A stretch of DNA of 59,930 bases, the filler included, from Dugesia japonica (taxonomy: Eukaryota), in assembly GCA_001938525.1 (NCBI GenBank). It is 6 parts of 6 records of this genome, joined end to end, with 100 filler letters (N's around TTAATTAATTAA, not from the genome) between each part and the next. Parts side by side here need not be neighbours in the genome. Positions count along the whole stretch, not along the records: positions 37,283 to 47,689 come from MQRL01265446.1; 5 more parts are not named here. One strand, 5' to 3'. Position 1 is the first letter of the stretch; the number at the start of each line of letters is the position of its first letter. Below are positions 9,490 through 59,930 of the stretch, piece after piece. Under the pieces are notes generated by a model that did no database searches, had not been told where the DNA came from, and worked only from the letters and a program-made list of their open reading frames with translations. Position numbers and translations under genes: made by a program.

Positions 9490-9667
9490 ATATGTATGTA
9501 TATTGTTACTCCATCAATGAATTATCACAAAATATTTATATCTTTCTTTTATATTTATATGGGGTCACCAAAAAACTTACAATCATAAATGCGGTCGCGA
9601 AAAGTTTAAGACGCTCTTATATGATCAATCTCACTGCTAAATAGAAAGAATTGTAGATATTTTAGAT

Positions 9668-9962
9668 CAAGCATGTGCAACTTGATTTTATTCGATCCTC
9701 ATAATTTTTTCAAAATTTCATTAAAATTACACCTTGAAAATTTTACTCTATATATTTTTAAAAATAAATTTTAATGATAACTTAATATACACATATTTGA
9801 AATAATTTATATCCCTCTTCACACTGTTGATACACTTTGAAATATCTTGAAATACTGCTTTTTACTCTTTATACTGCTTTTAAATTCGAATTATAAATCA
9901 GGCTCGCTGTTTGATGTAATATTTATTTCCCATTCCGCAGTCACAACTAAGTTGCACGTCTG
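9668..9962. mobile_element. Degenerate hAT-type MITE
   Basis: Imperfect TIRs caagcatgtgcaact ... agttgcacgtctg; TSD poorly preserved. Confidence 0.4.
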
Positions 9963-12884: not shown

Positions 12885-15335
12885 TTGGTGTCACAAAATA
12901 TTACGATCATAAGTCAGTAAATTTTTATTCGTCCTTTGGGTTTGCTACTTTTATAGAAGGCATCTAATATTAGCAAATACTCACGGTGCTCCTGAGAGCC
13001 CCTATATTAACTTATGGCATTTACAACAAGTCCTGATATCAAGATCACGGAAATGAGATCCCTGGCAAAGAATTACAAGGATAAGGAACATTACCATCAA
13101 ATTGCCGAAAAGAAAGATATCTGTATGATACAAAAAACGTTATGAAAATGTAGTTAAACTGTGCATAAATAGAGTTGAAGACATAAAATACGTGTAAATA
13201 ATTTGCCAGTAAAAAGAGTATTTGAGAGGAACACACAACCCGTGATTATGGAAGATAGAACACAAGTGATGAAGCCAAAACCGACAGTATCAATGAAATA
13301 TTTGGCAAGATGTTATTTTAATAGACAGAGAGGATTTCTAGAACCTCGTGAAGAAAACCTCTAATGTTATTGCTGCGGGGAACATGGGCATAAACGATAT
13401 CAATACTCATTAAAAGACAAATGTTTAATTTGCAGCAAGTCTGGTCATAATTTTAGATCTTGTTCGATTGTACAGGGTTTGTCTAGTAGAAGGAACACCA
13501 AACGTTTGGGTATTCAAGAGGAATTGGACGATTCAAAAGAAGACGATAAGAGCGTGACAGATAATGATGTAATAATGGGAAAAAACTAGAACGACTCCAT
13601 TGCTTACATTTCGTCGATGGAGTCAGTATAGAAAAATATAAAATAAATCGAAATGATGATGAAAGAGGAGAGATGTTTGAAAAAGAAGATGAGGGAGAGT
13701 GGAGTAGAGTAGATGTTAATGAGTAAAGTTATAGATTTTGTGGGATTCAGGAGCTTCGGTGACAGTCATGAGTAAAAACTATTAGATTAAAATAGGAAAG
13801 CCATTGTTCTCGATGTATAATATCAGATTAAATGAAGCATTTAATAAGGATGGAGAAAAATCGTTGGGTATAGCAGAATTAAGTATACAATGGAACAAGA
13901 AAGTCAGGAAAGTTAAAGTCATCATAGTTAGACAGATCAACCCAGAATTAATAGGCGGTATTGATGCAAAGCAATGTTTTTTCTGCATTGGTTTTTTGAA
14001 CGACACACAGAAACCAATCAGTTCACGATTCCAGACGCGGATGAAAAATTTGGGAGAGTATGATTTTGAACTAAGTATAGAAAAGGCGAAGAACACAACA
14101 ATGTGGATGGGTTTTTTAGGCTAAAGAGAGTTTATATTCACAATGTAGCATGAAAAACATAGACGCAAAATGAGAAAAAGCGAGGGTGAAACATATTAAT
14201 TGAATTCAACGTGAGACCAATATAATTACAATGATTTGACAGGCTCAGACAGAAGATTCAGTAATACAAAGTTTGTAGAAATGTTGCAAGAAGAAGGTTT
14301 AGAGACTAAAAAGAGTGATCAAGTAAGTTACTGGAATAAACTGAAGCACGAATTGAAAATAATGAATGATTTGTTAGTAGTGGAAAAAGGATATAAATTT
14401 ATGTAAGTAGTTAGTAGCTAGTAGTAATAAAAGAAATTCNNNNNNNNNNNNNNNNNNNNNNNNNNNNNNNNNNNNNNNNNNNNNNNNNNNNNNNNNNNNN
14501 NNNNNNNNNNNNNNAGACAATTAATACAAGTATTGATAAATTTGAGATGTGAGCCAAAAGGAAAGTAGTACAAAGTCGTACAAAAGAAACTCTCATACCG
14601 TGGAGAAACCAAAATTTTTTAGAACAAATCATAGTGGACATAGCTTATATGGAACAGAGCAAGTCTGCAATGAAATATATGGTGGTAATTATTGATTGCT
14701 TTAGCAAACTAGTCACTTTATCTGCAGTTTCAAAAATGGATGAAAGGATGATTTTTATGATAATTTTGAACAAATGGATATACCGTTTTGGTAAACCAAA
14801 ATCAATTCTGACTGACAGATGATAAGTGTTTGAAAGTCAAGTGATGGCTAAGAAACTAGGAAAGTTTAGAATCGTACAGGAATTTAGTTCCCCGTATCCA
14901 CATCCGTCTAATTGTTTGGTAGAACATATGATCTGAACAGTGGGGGATATGATTACGATATCAATAAAAAGGAAATGTAATGAGAAAGATTGGGAGACAT
15001 TATTACCTAGAGTAGAATTTAGTATTAATGATACAATACAAGAGTCAAAAAAATTCTTTCCTTTTGAAATCGTATTTGGTTGAAAGATAAATATGCATAC
15101 CAAAGAGGAAACGCTCTCAAAAGGAAGGACAGATAAAGAAGAGATAGTGCGACAGAATTTGAAGAATGTGGCGCAGAAATTGGAAAATTTCGAGAAAGAT
15201 AAGCGAGGACAAAGATAATTTAAAGAGGGAGAGTGGGTATTAATCCGAGTAGAACCACTTAAACAAAGGAAAAACGGTTTGCTGTATAAATAGAATGGCT
15301 AAAAAGATGGAAAACGTTTTGAAGGAGGGGAGAGT
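12885..15335 (+). mobile_element. Degenerate, internally deleted Ty3/Gypsy LTR retrotransposon (gag zinc knuckles, protease region, RNase H end, integrase)
   Basis: PBS-like tggtgtca at ~12885. CYCCGEHGH..KCLICSKSGHNFRSC knuckles at ~13363-13463. RNase H tail KPISSRFQT..LGEYDFEL..YRKGEEHNNVDG at ~14010-14115. Integrase DIAYME..VIIDCFSK..WIYRFGKPKSILTD..SPYPHPSN.LVE at 14634-14940. PPT-like aaggaggggagag at ~15322-15334. Confidence 0.85.
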
Positions 15336-15479
15336 TATGGAAATTCGAAATGACGTTGTTTGAATAATACGAATTAACGTTAATTTATATTTATTAAAGA
15401 TTCTAATCTTAGTTGCTATTGAAATATGATAGAGTACAAGGATATTGTAACTATTAGAGTTGCCAAATTTCTTGCAAAT

Positions 15480-16040
15480 CAAGCCGGGACTTGCCCATGG
15501 GAATCGATGTTAAATAATAGTTAGTTAGCTATTATGTAGTTTGAATATTATGTAAAGTGTGAACAGGATATGAATATGTCCTATTCCTTCAATGTTTGCT
15601 CAAATTTCAATTATCAATTTACTGTGCACATTGTTATTTCCTTTTCTTTGTTGTCTGCCAAAATTAGCATTGGCATAGTCGCCACTATATCTTTTTAAAA
15701 TCTATTTTCAAACCATTTAACATGTGCATACAAAAATTGACTACCATCTGAAGATTCCCCTCTAAATTCTTCAATTTTAACAATGATTTGAAAACTTGGA
15801 CTTCTGAGCATTTTGAAAGGTTTGTTCGGGACTCATGGTTATCAGGCTTAAAACCAGCGGCAATCCCGATTAATCGAAACGATACATAATACAACTTTTT
15901 AAAGCTTGATTTAGTACATTTGAAGGCTAAACTTTAATACAAAAAATATAAATTATTTTCCTGTTTTTGGGTTGAATGATTTTTGCGTGCGAGGCCCTAA
16001 ACTTTAAGTTCTACAGCTTATTAGTGAATCTGAGAATGGA
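15480..16040 (-). mobile_element. hAT-superfamily transposase relic
   Basis: Minus strand SGDYANANFGRQQRKGNNNVHSKL...IEGIG.HIHIL resembles the DN-NFGG-NNV / GIGC-AHIL block of hAT-like transposases; a ggccctaa..agcttattag subterminal-like motif lies near 15990-16025. Confidence 0.5.
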
Positions 16041-16298: not shown

Positions 16299-17669
16299 TC
16301 ATTGATAAAGTGTTCCTTTACAATATTCTTTTGGTGATATTTTGAAAATCTTTAAATTGATATTATTATTAGAAATAATTTCATTGTTATTACAAGAAAG
16401 CTTTTCATTAATTTTTATTCTTCCATGCTTGTAAATTGATTCGAAATTAGAAATGATAACAGGTATAGGTAGAGCAATAAATAATACTCCGGTAATTGCA
16501 CATAAAGTTCCAATAATTTTACCCAAAATTGTAATTGGATAGATATCCCCATAACCAACAGTTGTAATAGTAATAATAGTCCACCAAAACGAATCTGGAA
16601 TACTCAAAAACAATGATCCATCAGTTTCACCTTCTGCAAAATAGATCGCACTACTAAACAATACTACACAAATTATTAAGAAGAATATTAATAATTCGAT
16701 TTCTTTGGAACTAGCTCTAAGTGTTTTTCCAATCATTTTCAATCCCATTGAATATCGCGATAATTTGAATATTCGAAAAACTTTAAAGAATCGAATAATT
16801 TTCAGAGTGGATAAGACATAAATTCGATTACCCAATTTTTTATCTTTTACAAGAAGAATCACAAGAGATATTATATAAGGTATTATGGCTATAATATCAA
16901 TGATATTCAAAGTATCTTTCAAAAATTTTAATTTCATTGGTGAAAAGGCAAGTCGAATAAGTAATTCGATAGTAAACCAACTCATGCAGCATGTTTCTAA
17001 AATAAAAAGCACATTATTCTGATCATAGACAATCAATATAACATCTCTTGATGATGATTTAGTGTGATTTAAATGATAATCATGCTTAAAATAAGGTATT
17101 GTTTCAAGGCAAAATATCAAAATTGACAGTATAATAATAAGTTCAGAAAATATCGAAAAACATTTTGCATAATTTGAACTATTTGGATATTCCAATATTA
17201 ACCAGACTTGTCGCTGAATTTTGCTTTTAGGTAAAACGATTTTTTCTGACTTTTTATATCTTTCAAAACGTCTAAAACAATCAATTATTTCATGATTAAA
17301 TTCAAAAAATTCCAGTTCTTCTAAAAATATATCAATGTCTACATTATTTGGTCGACGAAGACGACCTCCACTTTGATAATAATACAAAATTGCATTAAAA
17401 GACTTTCGATGACGATCAAAGAAATATTCATTCTTTAAAGTATCATAGTATTTGTTTCTCTTTAATGAACTTCCGAGTAAAGTATTTGGAAATTTCAATA
17501 ATGTAAAAAGATATGTTTCAAATATCAAACCACTTACATTAATTATAATTTTACGATTATCAGCATTATTTTCTTCTCGATTGACAATAATTTCTATTTC
17601 AGATTTCTGATGTTTTGTAATATATAAATTATTATCACTTTCAATTGGATTTATTGAATTATTTTTCAT
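16299..17669 (-). CDS. Voltage-gated potassium channel, Shaker/Kv1 subfamily, intronless, 456 aa
   Basis: T1 domain (IINVSGLIFET..FPNTLLG..EYFFDRHRKSFNAILYYYQSGGRLRRP), S1-S6, S4 KIIRFFKVFRIFKLSR, pore FWWTIITITTVGYGD, S6 ALPIPVIISNF; uninterrupted from ATG to stop. Confidence 0.95.
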   Translation of the reverse strand: MKNNSINPIESDNNLYITKHQKSEIEIIVNREENNADNRKIIINVSGLIFETYLFTLLKFPNTLLGSSLKRNKYYDTLKNEYFFDRHRKSFNAILYYYQSGGRLRRPNNVDIDIFLEELEFFEFNHEIIDCFRRFERYKKSEKIVLPKSKIQRQVWLILEYPNSSNYAKCFSIFSELIIILSILIFCLETIPYFKHDYHLNHTKSSSRDVILIVYDQNNVLFILETCCMSWFTIELLIRLAFSPMKLKFLKDTLNIIDIIAIIPYIISLVILLVKDKKLGNRIYVLSTLKIIRFFKVFRIFKLSRYSMGLKMIGKTLRASSKEIELLIFFLIICVVLFSSAIYFAEGETDGSLFLSIPDSFWWTIITITTVGYGDIYPITILGKIIGTLCAITGVLFIALPIPVIISNFESIYKHGRIKINEKLSCNNNEIISNNNINLKIFKISPKEYCKGTLYQ

Positions 17670-17797
17670 TTGAAAATTGAATTTATATATAAAAAATGAA
17701 TTTTTAAAAAAATTTAAAAAAATTATAAATTATTTACATTATGAAATTTAATATTTTGTTATATAATTTATTTACTATTTAATGATAATGTTTACAT

Positions 17798-20450: not shown

Positions 20451-20916
20451 ATATCCCACCTAAAAATAATTTGATATATTAAAACAAATTTACCTTTAAA
20501 TCAAAATAGATTTGTAAATTGTTGTAATGAGTATTTTTTAATTTTTAATTTAATAAGTTCAAACTGTCTTTGGTGCTTTAAATTAAGAATAAAACATGGA
20601 CACAAAAAGCGAAATTACTTTCCAAACAACCAAATAAAATGTGTGAAATTAATCGTTTTGATATTGAAAAGTATTCGGATTATTTTCCTAAAAATAGGTA
20701 TTTATAAGTAAAGCAATTTCTTTAAATACCTAGCGATATTTAAAGCATATGTATAAAATTTTCCTTTACCAGCTAATAAAAGTTTAAAAATAAATTAAAC
20801 TTTTCCAATTATTTGTAATTATATAAAATTAAATTCTTTTAAGCAATACCATTTCAAATTAAGTAAGTGTGATAGAAAACTTTAAAAGCGAATTAAATTA
20901 TTTTAATAAAGCTTAC

Positions 20917-23900
20917 CAAGGTAGCATTTTGACTCCGTCGATCTTCTTTAGCAGTAGAAAAGATTTTCTTTTTTGCTAAATTAGCTGCTTGTCTACATGG
21001 TTTAGAAGGCATATTTTGAATTATTTGCAAAATTTTTTGATTAGCAGTTTTTCCAAATTCATTTTTATTGTTATCATCAGATTTTTGAAGAGAGAAAACA
21101 ATTTTTTCAGAATGAAAAGAACTACCTTCTAACTTTGACAAGTCTTCATTAGTTGATTTAAAAAGTTTAATTTTAATCGGTTTCTGATATTGAGAATCAT
21201 CATTAGATCGAGATTCTGAGGTTAAATGAGATATTTCTTGATTTAAATAATTTCTTAAATCTTGATTAGTATTATAAACATCAGAACAAACTGTATCATG
21301 ATTTAAAGAGTATTTCCTTTTTCTATTTTTGCGTTTTATTTCATTATTAAGTTCAGCTAGTTTTTCATATTCTTCAGAAGAATTCATTTTATAAGTTATA
21401 TCATCAGATCCAATTATACTACTAAGAAAATGCCTCAGTTTCTTACGCTTTTTCGAATTTTTTTTATGTTTTTTAATATTCGTTGATTCTTCTAATTGAT
21501 CAGGATCTTTTTTTTGAACTTTAATTTTTAATGAAAATGAACCATAATTCCTAGAAAAAGTTTCAACGTTATTCGAATCTAAATACGTGTTAAATTCATG
21601 ATTTGGAGAATCATTTTCAACATTAATGGATTCATTATCATCATTATCAAGATTTTCATTGTAATCTTTAGATTGTAAAACTAGATGCGTAATACTATCT
21701 TTTAATAATTTGACATTTTTATCTAATTTGCCAGAATAATTTCTATAACAATTCAAAATAATTTTAGATTTAGATTTTAATTTATTCTTGAAAATTCTGT
21801 GAACACTTTTTCTCCATAAAGATTTTTTTATAATTTTGTAAACATTAACTTTAGTTTTAATCTTCTTCAAAATAGACCCTTTTAATTTTTTAAAAACATT
21901 TCTTTCAATTTCTTTTAAATTAATTGAATTTATAACATCAATCGCAGAGGTCTTAAAATTATTTCTGAATGAATTTTCTAAATTTGAATCAATTTCCTCT
22001 TTGTTATTAATCATATCACTGTTAACTGAATTAGACGATACACTTAAATTAGCAATTATATCATTATGGGATAGTTTTTCAATAGAACAAATTGGCGTTT
22101 TTAATTTAATATTATTTATAAGATCATTATCATTCTCTAAATTAATATCATGATGTATTTCTGATTTTTTGCACAATCGATTAAATAATGGTCTTTTTAT
22201 TTTTTCTTTCCGTTTTACAAAATTAGTTTTTTGTCGGCATTTGGTTCTTAAGGAATATGTTTTTTGAAAATCTGATACTTCATTTTGTTTCTTTACAATT
22301 GGTTTCTCAAAATTTTTTGATTGATTCGACATATTTGATAAATTTTTATTTTCGCTTAAGTTACTATCAATTAAATTATCATATTCTTTCCTTTTTATAT
22401 GACTGCTGTGATCAGAAATTTCATCTATTTCAACGATAACTAACGGAGCATCTAAACTTTCAATATCATCTGTATCTGAAATCGGTTCATCAGTATTATT
22501 AAAACTCTGAATTTCAATAGTGGCACTATAAGAATCTGGAATAAACTGATTATACATCGAAGTATTAATCAATATATTGCTAGGTTTTATAACTTTTGCA
22601 AATTGACTGCAACATTGAAATCTACAAGGAAAATCGTTTAGACTCATATCTATCAAAGATGCATATTTTATATTGTCGTTTTTCACGTTTGATTCTAAGC
22701 CACTGTAAATTCTCAGTTTTTTATTAATTTTTCGAACTGGATAAAACTTTTTATTAATAAACTCTGAGGTGTGATTATAAGCGTAACGCTTATTTTCCAC
22801 AAAATTTGCAGTCTGGCAGACATTAACGTTAACCGTTGGATATAAAAAATTCTCTATCACAGATTCAATAATTATAGCTTTATTTTCAAAGAAAGCTAAA
22901 TGGAAATCTATGTTTTCATATTCATCTGCATTATTTTTTATCATAGCATTGTTAATATTGTATTGCAGGAGTTTGGTTTTTCTGAATTTCCTCATTCTCT
23001 TAAATTGATTAAGTTTACTATTACTTTTTAAAGTATCTTTTTTATTAATCTCTGACATATTTTGGACATAATTATTTTTACTTCTTTGAATTTTCACATA
23101 AGAGTTGTGTTCTATAAAGTGTTCATTTTCACGCTTAATTGAAATGCTATTCTTTCTTAAATTGTATTTTCTGATAACGTTTGAGTTTTTATAATCAGAT
23201 TTAAATTGATTTAGAATAGTTTTTGAGAAAGGAGGTATTTTTATGTTTGAAAGACGAACATCAATATCATCATTTGTTACAATATTTGAATTATCAATTT
23301 GAGTCTGTAGATTGGATAGTTGATCGATATCTGTACAAGAATTAGAATTACTAATCATATTAATATCGATAAAATTTTCACTTGATTTTTTTTCTGATAA
23401 TTCATGAGAATTTAATGAAATTAAATTCAATGAAATTTCTTTGTTAGAAATATTCTTTTGTGGAACTTTGCTTTTTGAATTCGAAGAAATTTTGTGTCTT
23501 GAAATTGCCTCATAAAATGAGTCAAAGGATTTAGATATAGAACCTTTGGAACGAGTGCATCGCTTAAAATCTGTACTTAACTTTTGCTTTTCTGAAAATT
23601 CAGCCTTTCGCTTAGAATTCATTTTTTTATCAATAGCTATAGAAAATTTATTTTCAATAAAATTAATAGATTGATAAATGGCCAATTTTTTAGGAGGTTT
23701 TCTAAGACGCCTTTGCCTATCTCTTGGAATATCAAACATATTTTCAATTTTATTAATTTTAAATTCTTTAGGAGGATGAATTACTTTTTCGGATTTTTTC
23801 CCTTTCTTCTGTTTTTTTAATGTACTACATACTGTATTTTTAACTTTGTATTTCTGTGATTTATTTATGGGACAATAATCAACATCTAACTCATCAGTTC

Positions 23901-26900
23901 TAATCTTTTGGATTTTATCTTTAACATTATCTTCAATGAAACTTGTAGACATGTTTTCAAAATCTTTTGTAATATCACAATTCATTTTTGTACAAATCAT
24001 ATTTGTTTGATTTCCAATTAAAATTGTTTTTTCATTATTATTTTCGATGTTGCTTTCTAACACTACTAACATATTAAAATCATTTTCCGTTTTATCATTT
24101 AATTTTGTATTACAAATTACATCATCAACATTTTTAAAAGAAATCGAACCATCTTCCGACGATTTTGTCAAATTGTGAAAATCCTCAATTGACTTACTTT
24201 CACAACAAACATTGTCATTTAAAACATGTTCTTCGCTTCTTAAATTTACTTTAGAAAATATATCGAGTATTTTAAGTTCGTCATTACCAATATACCAATT
24301 TTTAGACTGATTTTGAGTTAAGTCATATTTTTGAAAAAGTTTTAAACTTGGTGTATTTTTTATAAAATCATTAAAGTACAATTTTTTAGTGAGATCAAAT
24401 TGTATTTTTTTCATTTTATTTATTCTACTATTAAAATAATTAAACCTTGAAAATTTAAAAGCATATTCATCGATATCTTCATCCTCACTTTCATTATCTG
24501 ATTGTATAGGTGTAGCATCTGATATATCTTCTAAAATAGGTGGTTCAATATATTTGTTGTCATCATCAATAATAGTATTTGCTGATTCATGATTTAAGGT
24601 TTTCATATTTAAAGAAATTTCTCCATCTGTGCAAAACTCAAATAAACCAAAATCATCTAATGTTTTAGACTTTAATGCAGAATCAGTAACGTAGAATGAT
24701 GACTCGTTGTTACGCTTTGAATCGAAATTTATTGACATCAAGCATTGAGTTTTTTCATCTAATAATGCATCATTTGTAGAAGAATAAATAAGCTCTATAG
24801 AAGTATTAGGAATAGTACAAAAGCTAATAGTATTATTAGTATTATTACTAAAGTTTGCTTCCGAAATATGATCATTTTCTTTAGAAAAAATATCTATTTT
24901 ACTTTGACCATCCGAGCTTTCACACATACTATAAATCTTAGACTTAAGTGTTGCTTCGGAATCTTGTTGTGAAGAACTACATGATATTTCAATTTGTTTG
25001 GCAATCTCCGAAAGTTCGTTAGATTCTTTTATATTCAAATCTATTTCCTTCTCTGAATCTTCAATTATTAAATTAGATCGGCAATTTGAATCTATGTCTT
25101 TAAGAATGTTATCATTAATTTTTGAAATTATAGGACATTCAATAGTTGTCGGTAAAGAAACAGGAATCACAGATTGAGAATCGCATCTTATAAGTTCATT
25201 TTGATGACTACCACTATATTGTGCGACAAATTTATCAAGAAAAGCATTCTCTTCTTTTTCAAGTTCAGTCAACATATCTTCAGTATTGAGATTAACAACT
25301 TCAGCAATTTCAATGCACTGTGGCATTTCAATATTGGATGAATTATTTGAATAATTATTTAAATATGTAGAAGTTGTTACTGATGGTAAAACTGTACTAC
25401 ACGGGGGTAAGGTAGTGAAAGAAGATGCATAAGATACTCTGGAATCAATGTTTATCTGGGTTGTGGAACACCTAGTTAGTTCTGTAATATCATCCTTTTG
25501 AATATTTTGTAAAAATTGGTCGAGAATTTCACTTGACACAAAACCATCTGTACCCAAGTTGCTGGCATCATATAAATTGTACGCAGTTGTAAAATCATCA
25601 GTATTACTTAACTCTGCATTAGATATTTCCCAAGCCAAGGAAAGAAGATCTTTTTCGCCAGAATCAGAATTATCCAATAGAGTATTTGAATTAATTTCGT
25701 TAAAAGAATGTGATATAGCAACATGCGGCTGATTTAAATAATCTGATGAATCGTTATTTACATAATAATTGCATTGATATGTACTACGGGTATTCAAAGA
25801 ATTATTGCAGTTTTGTTTCAGTGAATTATTTTCATTATACTGACATGCCTCTTGACTATCTATACTATGCGTTGAAGAAGCATAGCTGGAATTTTTATGG
25901 GATTTTGCTGGAGCACCTCTCTTACGACCAGATTTTTTACCTTTATTACCTTTGCGTCTGCCAGGACCGGATGGGGCCGGAAGCGTGGAACTATTCAAGC
26001 TATCTTGATTGTTAATTGATGTATTTGGACTACTCGTTTTGGGAGCAATTAACGGCTGGCGATATGTTGGTTTAGAAGGTTTTGGAGCTATAGCTCTCAT
26101 TTTTTTACCAGCTGTTATATTAATATTTGAGGACGGACTATAAAGTGAAAGCAACTGATTTGACATTAGTTGACCAGTATTCATATGTATTGATATAGGA
26201 TTAACACCAGATGGTTGAGAAACTGGAGTTAGAGGTAAATTTAAAGGTAAAGTTATTGGCTCACCAGGTTTGAAATTTGAAGGAATATGAAGCAAAAAAT
26301 TCCCAATACCTGGTAGTTGAACCTGAACAGATTGTTGAGACATGCTTAACGTATTTATTGACTCCACATTTTGTAATGTAGAATTTGTGATCTGATACTG
26401 TGACAAAGTATTGTTCAATGAATCATCAGGATGCTAAACATTTAATTAATAAAAATGATATTCAAAATAAATAAAAATTTAAAAAATCTCAAAATTCGTC
26501 ATTAAACGATTTATTTATTTAAATTAATTAATATTAAAATGCTGAATTAGTTTCGAAAAATTCAAACAGTTAAAATTTCCTTCTTTTAATTCTAAATGAT
26601 GATTTAATCGAAAATAATTCTATATAATTTTTAAATTAAAAAAAATTGAATGTCTAAATAAGGAGTCAGCATCCATTTTTTAGCTGCGGATCAAAGTAAA
26701 AAAAATGTGACTATTAAGAATACTATTCGGGTCACTGGATATATATACACATTAATAAAAAATCATCTTTTTGTTTTTTTTAAATAACTCAAAGATTATT
26801 CTCGTGTTGCAATGAAGTTTAGAATGTAATGTAATTGAGATTAACCAAAAATAAAAATATATAAATTAAAAGAATTGTGCATAAAAAAGTAAAAAATAAT

Positions 26901-35064: not shown

Positions 35065-37182
35065 GCTGGGGTTCCACCTCAGTTGGTGTTATTGAAAAAT
35101 ATGGCTTGCGAAAAACAGCCCTCAGGGGATCCCTTAAAGAATTGACCTAATGTCCCTTATTAGTACTTCAGTGTAATAATAATAATTTATTTGTAGTACG
35201 TACTAATAAACCTTTGTCTTCGGGTTCATTATTTTCCCTTTTATTTACCAAATAAATTAACAAAATACTAAAATTAAGATTTATTGTTATTTAACTACAT
35301 ATATTCTAGAGCACCCCGGTCTAACCACTGGATAGGCTCTCCAGACATGAAACTAAATACTGATTCGTCGTCGACGTTATTCCATCTCGTCCATGTCTCT
35401 TACTCACGGCGATTGGCTAAGTCGGCAATATATTGCTAAAGAAATTCGATTTTTTGTGTAAGGATTTGTTTTGCGTGTTCCGCCAACTCACCTTGCTTTT
35501 TAACAATAAGGTCCAATTTTTTAATTAAGCGGTTCCTCTGGGTTAGATGACGTAACAATCTCCGCTCATTTTGTCATTTTATATAACGCTCTAGCAATAA
35601 TTTCTGAATAAGTCGGTGACAACAACGGAGACTGTTAGGTAAAAGAATTCTCGGCACTGAAAAGAAATAGGAAAGTAAAAATCACTCAAAAACCATTATA
35701 GTCAATTCAATTATTCAAATTATTATAAATGAAAAATAATCAAAAAGGTGTCATTAGTAGATTACGACTAAAAGATTTTATTTTATACATAAACAAAAGC
35801 AAAACACGCTATGGTCGTGAAGTTTGAGTTGACTTATCCACCATTAATGGTTCAAGTGGCATGCGTTTCCTCAGTTCTAAAACATCTGCAACCACTTTAT
35901 TGTCATGGCCATGGAGGGACGANTGATCTCAAAAAAGGACTCTAGCTGACCTTTCCAGAGCCGTTCCGGTGCATGGGAGACTTCGACTTCCTTACGAAAC
36001 GTGATGCATTTATTTTTGTTTCTTTTTACCTTACTTACGGCTGCAGCTGTAGCAGCCTCCCAGCGACGTTTGGCCAATTTATACACGTCCCACGTCATAT
36101 AAAGGTCTTCGCTATTTTCTCCAATCTTTTTGGTTGGAGCGGATGATCGGTTGAGTGAGGAGGGCACTGGAAAAATGAAACATAATTGAATAATGAGTCT
36201 ACTCACTAAGGGGATTAATACTCAATAAGATTTAAATGAAGTTTATTATGAATGGTCAAATATTAATTCATGATAATTAAATAANTAAGATAATTAAACT
36301 AGCATGGAAATAATAACAAAAGAAGAAAATGAACACTCGATTAATGATGAATGTAATTTATTAACAATATAAGAGTAGATAATTATTAGAAAAGAAAACA
36401 CAGATTTGGTGTTATTTATAAAGTCACCTAACCCGGAAAATGGTGGTAGATTGGATGGAGAGATAAGGACCACGGAGGGTCCTTCCTGCCACTCTCTAGT
36501 CACCTGCGATTCACCGTTGGAATCTAATCGTGTGGTGGTGACGACGTGAAATGTTTCACGGGCACGTTTAGGCCCTGTCCACTCATAATAGACCTGGCGC
36601 TCAACAGCGTNNNNNNNNNNNNNNNNNNNNNNNNNNNNNNNNNNNNNNNNNNNNNNNNNNNNNNNNNNNNNNNNNNNNNNNNNNNNNNNNNNNNNNNNNN
36701 NNNNNNNNNNNNNNNNNNNNNNNAGTACTTTCCACTTATATTCGACTAAATTAAATAAACATGTGCAAAAGTTAAAAGAGAAGATATGACAATAATTTAT
36801 AATTAACAATAAAACAAATATAACAAAGTCACAATTAATAATGATGTATTAGAATTAAGGTTCTAAATCCAAATCTATTTGACTGGCCTTTACCAGTGGA
36901 AAAAGTTCAATGAAACAGCGGAGGTCTGTCTCATTCAGGTGTAAAATGAGTGACGTGGCTAAAATATGCCCGATCAGTTGGCGTTTCTGCACTTTTATTT
37001 TTTCTTGGCGGATGAATTCGAGGGTGACGCGGAGCAGATCTGACATTAATCTAAAACAACAAGGTTTAAGGGGGAAATCTGATGCGAAAATAAAAGTCAC
37101 CGGAAACTCTTTATTGGTCAAATGTGGATTAAGGTCCCGTCACATCATTAATATCTAAGTATACCCAAAATCCATGTGAGTC
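35065..37182 (-). mobile_element. Multi-cassette element, second family member, cut by the contig end
   Basis: Begins tgctgggg (compare tgttggg), has an agggga..gtccctt stem, then GC-richer minus-strand ORF cassettes 35295-35656, ~35809-36205, ~36294-36745 and 36855->37180 separated by AT-rich spacers. Confidence 0.55.
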
Positions 37183-37330
37183 NNNNNNNNNNNNNNNNNN
37201 NNNNNNNNNNNNNNNNNNNNNNNNNNTTAATTAATTAANNNNNNNNNNNNNNNNNNNNNNNNNNNNNNNNNNNNNNNNNNNNTTCAAAGTTATTATCGAA
37301 ATTTAAAATTTTCTGTTATAACAAAAGTTA

Positions 37331-38200: not shown

Positions 38201-41200
38201 AATTATTAACGTAAGATTTTAATGAACGGAAGTTATTTTATAAACAGTTAGATCAACAAATTTTACTTAATGGTTTATAATTTATAAACAAGAATAAATT
38301 GATAATNNNNNNNNNNNNNNNNNNNNNNNNNNNNNNNNNNNNNNNNNNNNNNNNNNNNNNNNNNNNNNNNNNNNNNNNNNNNNNNNNNNNNNNNNNNNNN
38401 NNNNNNNNNNNNNNNNNNNNNNNNNNNNNNNNNNNNNNNNNNNNNNNNNNNNNNNNNNAATACTCAATCTAGAGATATTTATAAAGAAAAACGAAATCCT
38501 CTAATCACAGTACTAATTAACTAGAATTCATTTCTCAGCTTTAGCGTAGCTTTGTGGGCAGCATATTCTTGACGAGAGGTCGTCTAGTGTGAATTAGATA
38601 TGAATTTATTTAGTTAGCTGGATATAAAGTTTCAATTAGTTTTGTATGAAGAAAAAAATGTGAAGAACTAATTAATAAATTAGAAATGAAAGCATGTAAA
38701 ATTTCCACTGAGAATAAATCAGTAGAAGATCGAACTGAAAAATCATACTAGAAAAATGGAATTCTTTACCGAATACATTTGGTGCAATGAAAAAGATTAG
38801 CAACTTCACTATTAAATAGGTTGCAATCATCATATGAGTAAGTAGATGTGAGCGCATGACCGCAGGTCCCCCACTAGCGAAAATATATTACACCTGCAGT
38901 ATGCTATCGTACTGGTTATCGTGGATTTATTGATTTTTGATAGGATCAAAATCGACAAAAATGAATTTTTTTCTTTTAATTAATGGGGGAATTTTGCGGG
39001 AATTTTAAATTTTGTTTTAATTTAACACATTAATTAACACATTACGATTGTGCTATGATTTTTTGGTTATTTTTTTTCTAAGATTTTTGGGATCAAAATG
39101 TTTTTGATCGGATCAGTTTTTTTGATTCTGGGGATGCGCGTGTGTATTTTTAAATTTTAAAATTTGTGTGTGTTTGAGTTGCTAAGTTTAAAAAGTAGGT
39201 CAGTTTAAAAAGAAGTAGTAGTTTAAAAAGTTGCTACTTTAAAAAGTAGGTCAAGTTGAGTTTGTGTGTGTGGTTGTGTGTGTACGTGTAAGAATGATTT
39301 TGGACTCGAGGAGGAGCTGGAGATCTTGGAAATGATTTTTTTGGAGTTATTAAGGTTAGATTGTGGCTTGAAAAAAATTTGGTCTATACATTCTCTAATG
39401 GATTTATGAGATTGGATGGATGGTTTTCGCTAGAAGGGTAGTAGCGCCCTGCCACAGGCGTATGAGTTATCGTGGCGTGTTTTTTGGGAGGGTGTAGATT
39501 AATATGGGGTTATTGGATTTAGAGGGTTGATGAGTTGTTGGAAAGGTAATGTGATGGAAAATATTTTGTATGTCGAATGTGCTTTGATTTTTTATTTTAA
39601 GAGCTTGAATTTGATTAGCTGATATTTGTAAGTAGTATAAAAAACTTTTCGGGAGGGGAAGAGTGGTATGGGTGGAAAGATAATTAATTATCAAATTTTT
39701 TAAAATTTATTTGAAATTTTTCTGCCGCGTGGTTATGATGTCATAATCTTTTGAAATCTTTATTTTGAGAAAAATGCTGTATTTTGCTTAAATTGATGAA
39801 TTATTCGAAAGTAATGGTATTTTTGAGTATATTTTGAGTATTTATGATTGGGAAGGGTTGTTTTTAATATTTTTCGATGTTGGAAGAAGGGATTCTTTAT
39901 ATTTTTGAAAACATTTTTGGTGGTAAATGTAAAAATTATTTTTTGGCGGGAAATTCAAAAATTTATTTTTGCATGGGAAATTTATATTTTTTTGAGCAGT
40001 CTTGATATTTATGGATGGGGAGTCTCTTTATATTGAATGAAATGGAGCAGTCTAAAATTCCCAGGCACGTGATTTTCAATGTATGTGTGTTGCATCTGAG
40101 TTGCATGTCTATTGCATTTATTAATAAAAAATGTCCAGGCTCGTGATTTTTAATGTATGTGTGTTGTATATTCATTGCATAAATATTGCATACATATTGT
40201 ATTCATTAATAAAACACTATTTACAATAAGAAACATTTATTACAACAACAACTATTTTTCTTTTCTTCTTTAATTTTTTTCTTCTTCTAGATAGATTTCT
40301 ATTGGTTCCTGAATTTCTATTGGTTCTTGGTTGGTTTCTATCCTTTCTATAACCAATAAAATTATACAGCAAGTACAAAATTACAGATTCTTTTAAATAT
40401 TTCATTATACTAAAAATGGTAGATTTTCGCAATTCATCGCACAAGCAAAATGAATTGTTCAAGAAGATAGATATATGCAACAAAGGTAATAAAGATAGTG
40501 CAGATACTCTATCCAATCAAAGATATACAGTGTTAACAATCGCGAATCAAACCTATACACTAAACTATATGGACAATTTAAATAGGTGTATAGTAAATAA
40601 AGTAGAGAGAATAAAAGGAGAATACAATAGTAGGTAGATAGTGGCACACGGGCACAATTTTTAAATTACACCCTTCCCCCAGATGAGGGGAGGCTTGGAA
40701 ACATATTCCGTTAAAGCTGCGTTTTTTTAGACATGATTTTTGTACTCGTTTTTTTCCTAAGATTTTTGGGATCGAAATTTTTTGATCGGATCAATTTTTT
40801 TGATCTGATAAGTTTTTTATCCGGAAAGTGTGTGTGCATTTTTAAATTTTAAATTTTGTATGTGTTTCGGTTGATAAGGTGGTTTTTAAAAAAAAAGGTC
40901 AAGTTGTGTCTGTGTGCGGTTGTGTATGTGTAAAAGACTGGAAAAAACGAGGAGGTGGAGCTGGAGATCTTGTAGATAATTTTTTTGTGGTTTTGAAGAT
41001 TTTTTTGTTGTTGGACAAAAATTTGGTCTATATATTGTCTAAAAGACTTATGACTTTGGATGGATGGTTTTTGCTACAAGGATAGTGTCACACGGGCACA
41101 GTTGTATGAGTTATCGTGGGTAAATTTTGTGGGGGTTGTAGGTTTTTATGTTTTTGATGGAATTTGTTGGTTGATGTGTTGTTGGAGAGGTAATGTGACG

Positions 41201-42214
41201 GTGAAGATTTTAGTTGTCAAATGTGCTTTGACTTTTTATTTTAAGGGCTTGATTTTGATTGGTTTATTTTGTAAGTAGTATAAGTGTGTTTAAAGAATTT
41301 TTCGTGAAGTGGAGGTATGGTATGTGTGGAAAGAGAATTAATTATTGGATTTTTTANGATTTATTTGAAATTTTTCTGTCAGTTGGTTATGAAGTCATAA
41401 TTTTTTGAAATATTTAATTTGGTTAAAAATGCTGTATTTGATGAATTTAATGAAAGTAATGTTATTTTTGAGTATTTGATGTATTTTTGGATATTTTTTC
41501 GGTATTTTTATCAGGGAAGTGTTGTTTTGTAAGATTTTTGAACGAGGAAGAGGGTAGTCTTGATATTTTAAAAAACTTTTGGCGGGAAATTTAAAAAAAT
41601 ATTTTTGGTATAAAATTCAAAAAAAAAATATATTTGGCCAAAATTCAAAAAAAAATATTTTTGGTTGGGAATTTTTCATTGCAATGGGGGGATATCTTTT
41701 TATTATAATTAAATTAAATTTAATTTAATTTAATTACTTTTTTATGTACGAGATGGGATAGTCTTGATATTTTGCATGCAGAGTCTCTATATTTTGCAAA
41801 AAATGGGCAGTCTTGATATTTTTTAAGATATTAATACAAGATATTGGGCAATCTTGATATTTTTTAAGATATTGTTGGGTTTTTAGGATTTCAAATAATT
41901 TGAATTTAATATCTGCACTCTACGTAATCGAATATTTTCCTAGATACACAAGTTCGATCTTTTTCGTCTAGGGGCATACCTAAAAACCACAAGCATTTGA
42001 GTCACCTCTGTGACATGCCCCTCTTAACACGGGTTCAGCGCAACTTTGCGGTATCGCGTCTTACGTTTCTTTTTCATGAACCCCCATCACAATCACGCTC
42101 ATTTGCTTAGTATTGATTTTCCATAAATCAGGTTTAAAAAATAAATAAATAGTCATACATAACCGCGAATAAATATAATAAGAATCAATGACTTTGAGAA
42201 CTATTTATTCACCT

Positions 42215-42540
42215 CTATTCACATGCATCTAAATCCACCATGGTATTCCCCACGCGCGGCTCATCCGCTGGATTTCGGTACAACAACCACAGTGCCCTCA
42301 AATTGTTGAAGACCATGGCCTCTCTGTCGGCATAAAGTTTGATAATTTCGGCCATCAACCGATTGGTTTGCTTCAATGCCAACTCTTTCTCTTTCAGTTG
42401 TTGATATTTGCTACTATGCTTGGTAGCCTGGCTCTTCAGTTGCAGTACTTCATTTCTTAGCACCCGACACTCCTCTTTCCATTTCTTCAGCAGGGCTATC
42501 ATCTCTTTCGTTGAAGTCTTATTATCCGGTGTCGGATTCA
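42215..42540 (-). CDS. Cassette ORF, coiled-coil protein of unknown function; starts at an acceptor-like tttcag|TG
   Basis: Open frame NPTPDNKTSTKEMIALLKKWKEECRVLRNEVLQLKSQ...DACE with heptad character, GC-richer than its flanks. Confidence 0.55.
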
Positions 42541-43070
42541 CTGAAATAATCATAATAGTTAATTTTGACATCAATTATTCGACTACGTATCGGTTGAAAT
42601 ATAAAAATGAGAAATTGTCAAATTATTTCAATTATTTACAAGGTTAAAGTCTTATACTATGAAATTGATTCTTATTACTGCTAATACTGAGAACAAGAGT
42701 CGATTGTATACAGCAGTATTATTCAAATAAAACCTATTTCATGACAACGACTCAATGATGTTTTCTCGATTCGATACGGATCAAATGAATTGTCCGGTGA
42801 TTACTACGTTTCCTTGTAAATAAACTCAACAACAAAGGATTAGTTATAATCCATTATCCCCTAATTTGCGAATACATTTCTTATCTTCACTCTCATTTTG
42901 GTTTATTTAATTAAAGAAAAATTTCTTTTTGACTAACAATTAAAATTAAAATTATTCAAAGATTGCCTCTGCAATCATTGTGACATACATATCACTTTAT
43001 TTTTCTCTAACAAAAACTCAACTAGATTAAAATCAAAAAAAACAGTTCTCATTGAACACTCGGTATATTT

Positions 43071-43496
43071 TTATTTTTTGTTCACCACATCGACATTTGT
43101 GACAGGACCGCTCAGACCCATCAAATCTCGTATGATCGTGTATTCTTCTTCCTCAGCTTGGGATTCCAGGGTGCTGTTCTCATCAATCCAGCTTCCCATT
43201 TCCGCTTTCGAATGTCCATTATCCTCCGTCAATGTTCCCGATCCGGTCTCCTCAATAACCGCCCTTAATTCATCCCGTTGGGTCGTGAGGAGGCGTAAAT
43301 TTTCCTCCAGGAGAGCAATTCGCAGATTCGCGATCTCAAAATCGGCGCTTAAATCTGAAGTTGCCTCGGCACAATATTTCTTCTCCAGGTGGATCATACT
43401 CTGAACCTCTGACCATTCAATATAATATGTTCCGTTACTGTCGAAATATTGCCAGATATATCAAGGCCGCTTGAGGTTTCGTCTCCTGTTTACCAT
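43071..43496 (-). pseudogene. Cassette ORF, coiled-coil/acidic protein with one in-frame stop
   Basis: ttag|ATG VNRRRNLKRP*YIWQYFDSNGTYYIEWSEVQSMIHLEKKYC...LRIALLEENLRLLTTQRDEL...NKK. Confidence 0.55.
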
Positions 43497-46400
43497 CTAA
43501 TAAATGACCAACAATTATTATCAATCAAAACAAATAAGCATATTAGGGTAATCTTAATAATATTTATTAATGCAAATGGATAATTTTTGAAACGATTTCT
43601 TCGGCCTGAGGCCTATCATTTTTTCCGTTTCAGAACATGAACCAGAGAAGATACCTGCTGGAAACAGCCATCTTTCCTCGTTCCCATTATTGACAAATAA
43701 TATCATTAGATCAACACAATCCTGAAACAACAACTTATTTTAAATACAACGAAAAATGTAATAATTAATAATCACGGAGCCAATAATAAAACTGTGTAGA
43801 TATTTTAATCAAACCATAAGTTGAATAAATATTTTAATGATAAAATTTAATTCATGACAAATATGTCCACGATGTGTGAACAGTTAAATAAATCTCCAAT
43901 AATGGGAACATTACTATTACAAATCAAACAACAGACAAAAAATTGAATTGGAGCATAATAAGTCTGATATAAACTGCTACTCGGTGAAATTTGGCAAGAG
44001 CTCCATTTTCTCCTCAACCCACAGTCACTATCTCACAACTCTTTCCTTAATTCTCGGCATTTAATTCTCCTCAAACTATACTCGTGGAACATTCTCCTTA
44101 TGATCTCTATCAGTCTCGTACTGATCTCAAATCTCTTTTCATATAGTTGAACAACCATTTAACTCCCCAACGCTCCCTTAGTCTCACGAGTTATTATTTC
44201 AACAAATTTGGGTAAGTAAAATTATCTCTCGCTCGCGAGCATACCACGATCATCTCTAAAACCTATCAACACCAAAACAAAAATTTTTAAAATAAACTTC
44301 TGATTATTTTCTCCGTGTATCGATATTTCTTTCCTTCGAAGATTGACGAGCTCTCATTGCTCGCCCAATCGTTTGTCCTCGTTCTGTAATCTCGACATTC
44401 TATTGGATATTGTTTCCTGTTTCTCGTGAATACTTCTGTTGTTGTGCGGATTTCTCTATCCGACCGATGATTGACATCGAATTTGGAAAACCAAATTCGT
44501 GTGGTCAGGAGAATGTCCTTGTCTCACTATCTAGTTTTTCAACTGAATCATCGCTTGGAAAAACCAGAAATAAACGTGACTGGACCAGAATAAATCGAAT
44601 TTTTAATAATATTAAACGCTAATTAGCGTTATTTATAATAACGATAATGGGTCGTAGAGGCNNNNNNNNNNNNNNNNNNNNNNNNNTTATAGTATTTTAT
44701 ATTATTTTTATTATTTGGCTTATTATTTCCTATTGATACATCCAAAATTCATTACTACTTCTTCAAATTTGGGTCCTCTACGCCCAATTTTCATTTTTTT
44801 CTCGTCTCAATAATAATTGTATAATAATTTTAATAATAATAATTACATAATAATAATGATGATATAAGGTAAAATATCTGGTCCAGTACCAATTTTCATT
44901 TAATTTTCCACTTGCTCTCTGATAATTTTCGTATTATTTGGGGATGCTTTGTTATCTCTTTTGCACCAAAATTATGTGTTCTAGCCCAACAATATTATTA
45001 CAAGAAATTTATGCATGGTATGGGCAGTCTTGATATTTTCGAGTATATTATTACAAGATATCAAACAATCTTGATATTTTTTAAGATATTATTACAAGAT
45101 ATCGGTAGTCTTGATATTTTTTATAAGATATTATTACAACATATTTATGCATGTTATAGGCAGTCTTGATATTTTTTAAGACATTATTACAAGATATCGG
45201 AAAGTCTTGGTATTTTGCATGGTATGAGCAGTCTTGAAATTTTGAATGGCTAGCTACTATATTTAACATGAGAGCCTCTATATTTAGCATGGGATGGGAC
45301 AGACTTGATATTTTGCAAGGTATGAGACAGTCTAAAATTCATAGGCACGTAAATTTCAGTGCATGTGTGTTGCATCTGAGTTTTATCTGAGCTATATACC
45401 AATTTCATTTAAAATATCAATAAAAATTCCCAGACATGTGATTTTTAATGTATGTGTGTTGCACCTGAGTTGCAACTGAGTTGCATATCTATTGCATTTA
45501 AAAAAAATCAAAATGCCGGCTATTTTGAGTTTTATAAACTTATTTTTTGGTGAGAAATTTATTAAAAATTCCCAGACATGTGATTTTTAATGTATGTGTG
45601 TTGCATCTGAGTTGCAACTGAGTTCCATATATATTGCATTTAAAAGAAATCAAAATGGCGGCTATGTTGAGTTTTAAAAACTTATTTTTTGGTGAGAAAT
45701 TTATTAAAAATTCTCAGACTTGTGATTTCCAGTGATTTTCAGTGTATATGTGTTGCAGCTGTAATGCTTCTAAGTTGCATTTATGAAAGTATATCTATAA
45801 AAAAAACTTCAAAGAGGGGAGTCTTTGTGATATTTACATAATAAAAAAATTATTAAAATTAACCAAAGAGAGGCGTCTTTGTGATATTTGCATAATAAAA
45901 TATAACTTTTATTAAAATATTCAAATAAAAAAGTTCATAGAGGGGAGTCTTTGTAATATTTGCATTATATAATATTCAAAATAAAACTTTTCTTTACAAG
46001 ATGATAAAAACATAGAAATGTTTTCATAAAAATATATTATTGATGCAATTTTAAATAAAAAGTATCATTAGTGTTGCAATTTTTAATAAAAAACATATTG
46101 ATTGAGAACATTTATGAGAACAAAATGATAAAAAACATAGGACTTTTCCATATATAGCTAATAAGACTATATAAAAATATTTTCATGATTGTATAGTTAC
46201 CTTGTATTACTTTTTACATAGCAACAATGTATTATTTACATAATGACCCTTTATTATATGGTTTATGAGTATATTATTTGCATAGCAACAATGTATTTTA
46301 AAGATTTTGAATGTATTATTACATAGTAACCTGGCTTATCGTGTTTATAAGTATATTATTTACATATCAACCGCGTAATAAGAGATCACCATGCAAAGTG

Positions 46401-46714: not shown

Positions 46715-47689
46715 TTAGGTTGTCACATATGAAATGTCCAATTACGTAATAGACAATAAAATCAATAAAAGTCCAATAAAATCAAATTTTATTTAAGTAA
46801 AATAGTCACCATCGGATTCTATACATTTTTTGCCATCTAGACACTAGTTTCAAAATACAATTAGCAAAAAACATTTTTTCTCTGGAGTCTATGAATTCGG
46901 ATATGGGCATTTTGACATCCTCCCAAAAAATTATCAAAATACTTAAAAAAATGACAATCTGTTGGAGATAAGTCGGGCGAATATGGTGGATGTGGCAAAG
47001 TTTCAATTTTTTAGTCTGTCAACTTTTGCGGGCATTATCATGCAAGAGGATGATTCCTTTTCTATTGACCAATGAAGGCTGTTTAATGCATAAATGTTTG
47101 TGCATTAAATAAATTTCAGAACAGTTTTTGTCTGAGTTAATAGTTTGACCTTCTTCTAACAAAGAAAAATGTATGACTCTAGCTATGGACCACCAAACTG
47201 TCAGCATTGTCTTTTTCGGATGTAAATCCGGTTTAGAACAGTGTAAAGGAGGTTGATCGGCATCTAATCATTGTGCAGAACGTCTACGATTGTGATGAAT
47301 AACCCATTTTTCATCACAANNNNNNNNNNNNNNNNNNNNNNNNNNNNNNNNNNNNNNNNNNNNNNNNNNNNNNNNNNNNNNNNNNNNNNNNNNNNNNNNN
47401 NNNNNNNNNNNNNNNNNNNNNNNNNNNNNNNNNNNNNNNNNTTTTTTCTTTCCAATGCCTTTCAAATGACGGGAAATTGTTTGACGACTAACGTCTAACG
47501 TTTTACTAAGTTGTCGAACTGATTGACTAGTGTTTAGTTCCACTTCAAGTTTTACATCGTCGTTGCTAATAACAACAACGGGGCGCCCCCTTTTCATATT
47601 GACCCGGGTTTATTTACCCTTTTCAAATTTGTCGAACCATCTCCGAAGAGTTCTTTCATTAGCTGAACCCTCTCCAAATGCAAAATTAA
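46715..47689 (-). mobile_element. Mariner element, degenerate, cut by the contig end
   Basis: TA + ttaggttgtcacatatgaaat terminus; RGRP, CDEKWVIHHN, LHPKKTMLTVWWS, ILLHDNA and HPPYSPDLSPTD motifs. Confidence 0.9.
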
Positions 47690-49048
47690 NNNNNNNNNNN
47701 NNNNNNNNNNNNNNNNNNNNNNNNNNNNNNNNNTTAATTAATTAANNNNNNNNNNNNNNNNNNNNNNNNNNNNNNNNNNNNNNNNNNNNCCTAATTTTCA
47801 GGTTGTGGAATCAAATATTAGCTTCATTTCTCAGCATTTTTACCAGAAAAAAAATATTTCGAAGAATACAATGAATATCTTCCGGTTAGACAAATACTTC
47901 AATTGAGAAATGTGGTTTTCTATAAGTTTTTTCAACCACGATTTCAACTGAATATTTAATATGAGATTCTGCTGGATCTTCNNNNNNNNNNNNNNNNNNN
48001 NNNNNNNNNNNNNNNNGTTCTTCCAATTATTGAAAAGAATTTAGTATTTCAAAAAATTCTTTGTGATTTAAAAAGTCTAATTAGTAATATAGAGTAAATT
48101 TATCAGGGATCTTTATATTTGTTTGATTTTTCAACTATTGAAGAAATAAAAACGCTTGAACACTTAAAAGAAATTCGTGACGGCAGACTAAAGAATAAAA
48201 GAATCCGGAGTTCAGCGAAGTCTAAACAATTTGCAATTAAAGGTGGATATTGTAAACAATACAGGCATAACAGAAGATCTTGTTAAATTATTTATTAATA
48301 ATTAATATTTTATTTATTACAATAAATTATGTGGCATTTTTGGAAATATTTTTTTAAAAACATTTTATTTGTTTTTTTAATTTTTTTAAGATTTATTATT
48401 TTTTTTGTAATTTTATTTTTGTTAGTGAAGTTTTGTCTAATATTTTTAGTTTTGTATTGCAGAAATTTTTAGACTTATTTAATTGTCAATTTAGTTGTGT
48501 TAGAAAATAAATGTTTCCTGAAAATGAATATATTCTGAATGTAGGGTATTTAGACCCAACCCCTGATAATCAAATTATAATTATTGTAAATAATTTTTAT
48601 AGCGTAAATAATTGTGTAAAAATAATTTCCTAAAATTTATATTTTCAAATTTTATGTAAAATATTAAGTTTTTTTAATAGTTATCAGAAAAAAAAATTAT
48701 TATTTAAATATTTATTAAAAGAGTTATCAAGTGTCAATTTCAAATCAGAATGCAAATAAATAGTTTGGAAGCTATTATTATGGTTAAAAATAAAATTATT
48801 GTAATTAATAAAACTGAAATCAAAATGTGTAATGAAAATTCTGTATTAACTAATAAACATAAAATTCTGAAACATTATTGTACTATTAATGATAACATGA
48901 AAAATTTATTTTTTAGTAATAAAAGCTAATATATAAAATATTTCAAAAAATATTTGCATACACAATAATTTAATTATCCAATCAAATTTAAATAAATAAT
49001 TTATTTATATTTTTAAATACTATGTCTGATATGCTAACTTTGATATAT

Positions 49049-59129: not shown

Positions 59130-59745
59130 GAGTCGGTTCCGATTATCCAAATTTGAGATTTGATAAGTATAAAAGAGTTATTGGATCTAGCAAGAATTTG
59201 GATTCCATAAACAAATTTCCACGAATGGCTACAAAATAGTCTAAGTGTCGGCATATGGACAATGATCGAAACAAATAATAGCTAGATGGCGCACAATCGT
59301 GGGAATATGGAAAATGTGGCATCAGCTCTCATTTTTTAGTCTTCTTTGCTGCATGTGATTTAGCGGTGTCTTGGTGAAGTATCACTTTCTTCGTTGACTA
59401 CTGCTAGCCGCTCAACTTTGAGAACGGCTGTCAAACGAATTAATTGTTCGCATTAAATGGCTACATTAAAGGTCTCGTCAGTCTTTAACATTTCTAAATG
59501 AATTATCTCCATGTAGTCCCACCATATGCACAATAGAATTTTCTTCGGGTGCAGCCCTAATTTGAAGGTATCGGTACTTGACCTGGAGATAACCATTGAA
59601 TTTTTTTTTAAATTTTCATGGAACACCCATTTCTCATCTCCAGTTACTATTTGCTTCCATAAGGGTTCAAGTTCATGGCAAAGGAGTATTGAATTCAAAA
59701 TTGAGAGACGTGATTCTTTCAATATCACTATTCCCATTTCAAAAT
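59130..59745 (-). mobile_element. Mariner transposase relic
   Basis: WKQIVTGDEKWVFHEN, GLHPKKILLCIWWD, LHQDTA and PHFPYSHDCAPSSYYLF motifs. Confidence 0.88.
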
Positions 59746-59930
59746 ATTTCTGATTTTGTTCAGCAAAAAATGCTTTCAGGTATATTTTGATACTGTCATC
59801 TGAATTTTATAATTACAATTATTGCGAGAATAATTGTTGGACTTAACCATTGATCCCATCTGAGATTTCATTAAAATAAGAAAAAGCTTCGATCAAAATA
59901 AAATTTATTTGTAAAAAAGTTCAAATTTTC

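Follow-up and report, generated by a model that had tools for sequence, protein, structure and literature searches.

Leader structures that control the priming of reverse transcription are known from a few model elements (Ty1, Tf1 and retroviruses), and the retroviral U5-IR and Tf1 self-priming structures are simple stems. The sequence of long terminal repeats (LTRs) usually diverges quickly beyond its last 7–15 bp. In Ty1, mutants of the 5′ pseudoknot lose reverse transcription, not packaging, according to the available sections of PMC3681743 and PMC4974528. Planarians harbor giant gypsy-like elements, Burro/GYPSM1, which the available part of PMC6431247 describes as having LTRs of several kb, copy numbers in the thousands, tandem repeats and accessory frames. 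Flatworm LTR elements make 4-bp target duplications (available portion of PMC4558846), and LTR ends follow a consensus of about 7 bp, TGTTRNR...YNYAACA (available portion of PMC3601003).

Here we analyzed a window of Dugesia japonica DNA (assembly GCA_001938525.1), by which we mean the whole stretch of 59,930 nucleotides, made of six genomic parts joined by spacers. Near one end of a 3.1-kb element it holds a segment that, in our assessment, is very probably a folded RNA of some function. The element itself is most likely the solo LTR of a large Ty3/gypsy-type retrotransposon, with the following parts:

41873–44991, minus strand (putative sense strand): the element, a putative solo LTR of 3.1 kb, delimited by a terminal inverted repeat, ATAT flanks and a split satellite unit
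41869–41872, no strand: left copy of the 4-bp target-site duplication ATAT; uninterrupted satellite units carry the site once
44992–44995, no strand: right copy of the 4-bp target-site duplication ATAT
43071–43460, minus strand: open frame of 129 codons with a weak WWE-like start (Pfam E 0.013, under the cut-off) and no convincing homologues
42215–42574, minus strand: open frame of 119 codons for which no homologue was found
42204–42209, minus strand: candidate poly(A) signal, the final AATAAA ahead of the motif, followed by a T-rich tract

The termini form a 7-bp inverted repeat of the TG...CA type (TGTTGGG/CCCAACA), and the element splits a unit of a ~41-bp satellite whose intact units, at 45071 and 45166, have a single ATAT. 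In these ends and flanks we find two marks of Ty3/gypsy-type LTRs as the available portions of the sources give them, a TG...CA repeat of ~7 bp and a duplication of 4–6 bp. Two other identities were rejected: the target duplication and TG...CA ends argue against a Helitron/HINE, and the high copy number argues against a telomerase template. The order of features on the minus strand (two frames, AATAAA at 42209, T-rich tract) suggests that U3 lies at the 44991 end and that U5 corresponds to 41873–42185. We infer LTR identity for the element, minus as its sense strand and U5 for the motif-bearing end. Over the whole element AATAAA occurs 12 times on the plus strand, including copies at 42140–42173, and 6 times on the minus strand. 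No internal gag/pol was seen in 41873–44991, and the window contains no full-length copy with paired LTRs, primer site, gag-pol and polypurine tract. A WWE-like N-terminus would make the 43071–43460 frame an unusual LTR accessory gene; further leads on this frame, an Atlas lead (<0.9) and a single repeat-protein match, were dropped and rejected, respectively.

The DNA of the window is AT-rich (15–36% GC per kb) and interrupted by the scaffold spacers and 22 further N runs. A larger G-skewed repeat (38900–41872 and 44992–46400), possibly another giant-element LTR, hosts the element and contains a 1,644-bp internal duplication and tandem units of 41, 74 and 142 bp. Elsewhere lie a broken pogo/Tigger-type DDE_1 transposon (6300–8370), mariner remnants (4700–5280, 47200–47690 and 59453–59806) and, on the plus strand at 13000–15500, a decayed small gypsy-like element with a protease-like frame (13786–14124), integrase-like remnants and a purine tract at ~15320, read by eye. 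A GC-richer stretch (35300–37183), whose two open frames belong to no known family, ends at a scaffold spacer and may be a fragment of a large element. An intronless, strongly diverged Kv1/Shaker-type channel gene occupies 16299–17729, with Rfam K_chan_RES at 16446–16559; its protein has at most 56% identity to named relatives and, in an unfinished quick tree, forms a very long branch, which a 97% split places with the flatworms. A 1,846-codon open frame on the minus strand (20893–26433) has no Pfam match.

The conserved motif sits 95–230 nt from the 41873 end of the element, and the window holds a second version of this end:

41873–41891, minus strand: terminal 19-mer, an integrase-type end and also the 3′ strand of helix S2; the same letters stand at 9471–9489
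41892–41965, minus strand: AT-rich spacer, variable in sequence and 66–86 nt long in other copies
42093–42101, minus strand: TGAGCGTGA box, common only to 9255–9263, 229 versus 235 nt from the end and outside the aligned contigs
9255–9489, plus strand: second, diverged copy of the element end, followed by ATAT and starting 70 nt past a scaffold spacer

Four shared blocks are colinear between the two copies, at distances to the terminus of 229/235, 190/188, 103/102 and 19/19 nt (41966 copy/9255 copy), and an 18-mer gives two matches where 0.01 would be expected by chance. An earlier reading of this DNA made from the sequence alone (hereafter the sequence-only reading) had reported these four blocks, and we confirm them, though the 9255–9489 copy runs inverted relative to the 41966 copy. 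Its further statement that the intervening sequence had diverged completely holds for the outer spacers, which have visibly diverged, but not for the middle, which is an N run (9320–9387, 68 N; the corresponding part of the 41966 copy is 69 nt). The motif-bearing end keeps 19 bp between copies, whereas the opposite element end shares just 7 bp with it. Between motif and terminus, AATAAA is absent in both copies.

Conservation of the motif is far above that of the neighbouring terminal sequence, the comparison that the sequence-only reading had singled out as a critical check. Part of the element is present in 19 of the 24 public runs listed, at most 0.23 of its words, and seven runs were aligned. 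The motif core is carried by thousands of contigs with unlike flanks, at ~100 times the summed depth of neighbouring LTR sequence, where summed contig depth is not equal to copy number. In run X1 this depth is 403,567 and 415,368 at 41969–42010 and 469,513 at 42032–42052, with 158,728 and 257,621 in the bins at block edges; outside the blocks it is 1,647–2,846 in the spacer (41906–41947) and 648–10,340 at 42095–42400. The profile of X2 has the same shape. Contigs aligned on 41960–42112 (153 bp) number 2,956 in X1, 2,009 in X4 and 172 in X10, a run which is labelled as another organism and does not count as a second species, its variants and loose ends mirroring those of X1/X4 at ~1/100 of the depth. 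Pieces across ~41965–42064 differ by 10–18 letters and end at common borders, and the terminal 19-mer is kept 66–86 nt from the core, across a different spacer, in at least 17 X1 contigs, at least 22 X2 contigs and at least 7 X21 reads. At positions such as 41961 and 41922 the whole of the X1 depth has another letter, so the 41873–44991 copy itself seems absent from X1. Scans with the motif gave 0 matches in viral contigs and 0 in prokaryote genomes; the metagenome matches were discarded as chance, all 14 lying in GC-rich contexts without the downstream blocks.

The motif is present in RNA. RNA reads aligned to it number 311 in X21, 19 in X20 and 10 in X24, and because 94–100% of them continue into unlike sequence, they derive from other copies. 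Oligo-dT reads span the motif and connect to the terminus. The strand signals conflict, with first mates on the minus strand at ~2:1 in X21 and the opposite in the 10 reads of X24. The ~41-bp satellite next to the element (41801–41863), whose summed depth reaches 1.2–1.5 million in X1/X2, also has oligo-dT RNA reads, and these are biased 3:1 toward the strand that the motif's reads in X21 disfavour. No read-end pile-ups were listed in the three RNA runs, and such libraries would hardly reveal cleavage sites.

On the minus strand, the motif is predicted to fold into a double pseudoknot clasping the tip of the LTR. Its helices exist as complementary sequence, and in RNA they would form as follows:

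41970–42022, minus strand: helix S1 and its loop, 42022–42015 pairing with 41977–41970 (8 Watson-Crick pairs)
41979–41992, minus strand: loop segment with two remote partners, 41979–41988 serving S2 and 41986–41992 serving K (3-nt overlap)
42001–42014, minus strand: hairpin H, 5 bp with a 4-nt loop
42031–42083, minus strand: helix A, 42083–42077 pairing with 42037–42031 (7 Watson-Crick pairs) and enclosing B and a variable AT-rich insert
42039–42058, minus strand: helix B, 42058–42054 pairing with 42043–42039 around a 10-nt loop (4 Watson-Crick pairs and one G-U)
42046–42052, minus strand: 5′ strand of the loop-loop helix K, pairing with 41986–41992 (7 bp: 6 Watson-Crick and one G-U/A-U)
41878–41887, minus strand: 3′ strand of the crossing helix S2, pairing with 41979–41988 (10 Watson-Crick pairs)

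The order on the minus strand is A5′, insert, B5′, loop, B3′, A3′, linker, S1 5′, hairpin H, linker, loop segment 41992–41979, S1 3′, spacer and terminus. Three stems proposed in the sequence-only reading (41970–41977/42015–42022, 42001–42005/42010–42014 and 42031–42037/42077–42083) consist of Watson-Crick pairs throughout. Its inner stem cgca/tgcg does not hold up as a shared feature: it is private to the window copy, needing a letter at 42042 that is missing in ~98% of contig depth, and the shared stem is 42039–42043/42054–42058. Its broader proposal of a cis-acting structured RNA near the terminus is supported by the conservation and by some two-sided changes, but it had overlooked the two crossing helices K and S2.

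The partner sequence of S2 occurs at one element end only, the other end lacking it past 7 bp. Duplex energies are –8.8 kcal/mol for K, –15.1 for the long S2 (13 pairs, one bulge) and –4.9 for S2 trimmed for K. Because K and S2 share 3 nt, they would either stack as 7+7 bp or alternate, and because K plus the short S2 is close in energy to the long S2 alone, the RNA could switch between the two states. When the S1 loop was shuffled 20,000 times, K turned up in 1,557 trials, S2 in 98 and the two together in one; the test is post hoc, K and S2 having been picked after inspection. Nested folding is modest, with z values of –2.43 (plus) and –1.82 (minus) for 41966–42110 and of –1.73 (plus) and –1.04 (minus) for 41865–42125. 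Scores of the fixed nested core are –28.7 for minus and –22.2 for plus.

Sequence variation was compared with this fold by using marginal frequencies among alignable contigs, without per-copy alignment, which are biased toward invariance at the seed blocks. Across 41966–42063 in X1, 2/54 paired versus 8/30 unpaired positions vary at ≥5%; this count omits the 14 positions of hairpin H, where variant contigs are clipped, its Fisher p of 0.003 is descriptive, and one position per class is private to the window copy. Among the unpaired positions, 21/30 show <2% variation, and at 41966–41993 there are zero variants at ≥2% in 4 runs. Both paired variants at ≥5% preserve pairing on minus and lose it on plus. 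At the middle pair of K, 61% of X1 depth has G-U and 39% has A-U, and one pair of helix B, a G-U on minus in the window copy and an A-C mismatch on plus, is Watson-Crick in 98%. Changes at 42015, 42019, 42039, 42081 and 42082 (2–10%) give a wobble on plus and a mismatch on minus, and 42031 does the reverse; partners of the five plus-favouring changes, at higher depth, could fall below the 2% threshold. The pair that closes S1 is not strictly kept. Two-sided changes, which bear on the other check named in the sequence-only reading (compensatory changes), are seen in majority lines of hairpin H, but not in K, S1, S2 or B, K and B showing one-sided changes that keep the pair. In 20–21 X1 contigs (agreement 0.74–0.75), 2/5 pairs of H are changed on both sides with the loop kept, and in 2 X10 contigs 3/5 pairs are changed two-sidedly. 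The hairpin of 32 X4 contigs breaks 3 pairs, at an agreement of 0.61 and reached from the far side across the variable linker.

The motif matched no family in Rfam, the database to which the sequence-only reading had pointed. At gathering thresholds over the whole window, the sole match is the K-channel editing signal at 16446–16559, and at E up to 10 on 41800–42250 there are three weak matches, all rejected, with no ribozyme family among them. Likeness to the C/D snoRNA U13 (42000–42117) was rejected, at 15.7 bits versus a gathering threshold of 46, E 0.65 and with a broken box C; the short-word likeness is treated as chance. The hammerhead core consists of CUGANGA and GAAA in a three-way junction, and scans of both strands agree with the sequence-only reading that it is missing, as is any Rfam hammerhead match. 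HDV-like ribozymes combine P1–P4 with P1.1, an L3 motif and a J4/2 cytosine; here the L3 pattern is absent, the strand order differs and Rfam gives no match. Twister, pistol, hatchet and twister-sister have no Rfam match at E up to 10, and the core motifs of twister and pistol are absent from the motif.

The function that we favour, tentatively and at somewhat less than even confidence, is that of a leader RNA in U5, which would position or gate the initiation of reverse transcription at a putative adjacent primer site; its functional precedent is the Ty1 pseudoknot. In a 5′-LTR transcript, the domain would lie directly ahead of this site. Hairpin A/B would kiss the S1 loop through helix K, the remainder of the S1 loop would pair with nucleotides 6–15 from the LTR end (S2), and a reverse transcriptase that starts from the primer site would run into S2 ~5 nt further on. 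A helix over the LTR tip would explain why 19 bp are kept at the motif end versus 7 at the other, and why the spacer is kept in length and not in sequence. Pairing with the last 6–15 nt of the LTR also points more to control of priming, a role absent from those suggested in the sequence-only reading, than to 3′-end processing. A role in processing or RNA stability, within R or at the start of U3 if plus is the sense strand, for example by masking the poly(A) signal of the 5′ LTR, would fit the oligo-dT reads that cover the motif and join the terminus, the AATAAA nearby on both strands and the U3-start stem-loop of Sire LTRs (available portion of PMC3601003). We consider it distinctly improbable: neither copy has an AATAAA between motif and terminus, and the minus-strand AATAAA lies ~100 nt upstream, which puts the motif in U5.

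Loop-loop helices mediate retroviral dimerization (available sections of PMC4974528), so K might form between two genomic RNAs, or Gag might bind the purine loop of H, and a packaging or dimerization signal of this kind would be consistent with an H loop of 4 nt that stays constant while its stem changes and, through a common protein partner, with sharing among diverged families. Even so, we hold it unlikely, since dimers need reciprocal pairing and neither loop is self-complementary, the pairing of S2 to the extreme LTR end is left unexplained and the Ty1 pseudoknot has no encapsidation role in the sections available. Less probable still is that the motif acts as a self-priming device, or as a self-cleaving ribozyme not described before, and so supplies the primer or sets an RNA end. 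The ~100-nt core, its two crossing helices and the 21/30 nearly invariant unpaired positions are what one might expect of such an RNA, LTR-borne hammerheads are known in retrozymes (available text of PMC4918200), and a 5′ LTR segment self-primes in Tf1 and is proposed to do so for Tj1 (available text of PMC4600332); yet Rfam ribozymes are unmatched up to E 10, the hammerhead, HDV, twister and pistol cores are absent, and a cut in U5 would part R from the primer site. The boldest form of this idea, that the double-pseudoknot RNA of giant animal retroelement LTRs is a new catalytic or self-priming class that cleaves itself or offers its own strand as primer to reverse transcriptase in place of the host tRNA, with a switch between two folds as the timer, we regard as a long shot. 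Conservation could also act at the DNA level, the motif being an inverted inner copy of the integrase/transposase site accompanied by palindromic sites for proteins, whether the element is an LTR or a DNA transposon with short TIRs. Segment 41979–41992 does repeat the terminus imperfectly in inverted orientation, the majority of blocks show invariance and not covariation, and internal gag/pol was not seen, but the motif stands at a single end, the G-U wobbles of common variants are kept on one strand, and neither the two-sided changes of hairpin H nor helix K is accounted for; we give this explanation little credence.

A ~100-nt block tied to the LTR tip and nearly invariant among very many diverged LTR copies is a compact RNA for in vitro testing, and the motif is a marker with which to find and orient these large elements, at whose ends assemblies break. 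Catalytic or self-priming activity, if present, would make the motif a new class of RNA. A literature search, whose scope lay outside the primary Burro description, found no description of the motif, nor does the available text of PMC11410931 and PMC8532177 with their supplements contain one.

Compared by description only, the putative 3.1-kb solo LTR has the size expected of Burro-like elements and resembles them in its thousands of copies, tandem repeats, accessory frames and AT-rich animal host, but the available part of PMC6431247 describes no such RNA for Burro/GYPSM1. The motif resembles retrozymes in being a conserved structured RNA inside LTRs of diverged elements with Ty3/gypsy-type ends; retrozymes, however, as far as the available text of PMC4918200 goes, are small and carry a hammerhead, whereas the motif lacks the hammerhead core. 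With the retroviral U5-IR stem and the self-priming structure of Tf1, which are named in PMC3601003 and in a reference title of PMC4974528, it would have in common the pairing of the U5 end beside the primer site; it comprises, however, several helices and a loop-loop contact in a domain of ~100 nt, joined to the tip across a 66–86-nt spacer, and no primer site was seen here. Ty1, finally, likewise has a pseudoknot in the 5′ region of LTR-retrotransposon RNA, in which, according to the sections available, nt 1–7 of R pair with a stretch of GAG that lies downstream from the primer site; the motif described here has every strand inside the LTR, two crossing helices, and the LTR tip itself as one of the strands.
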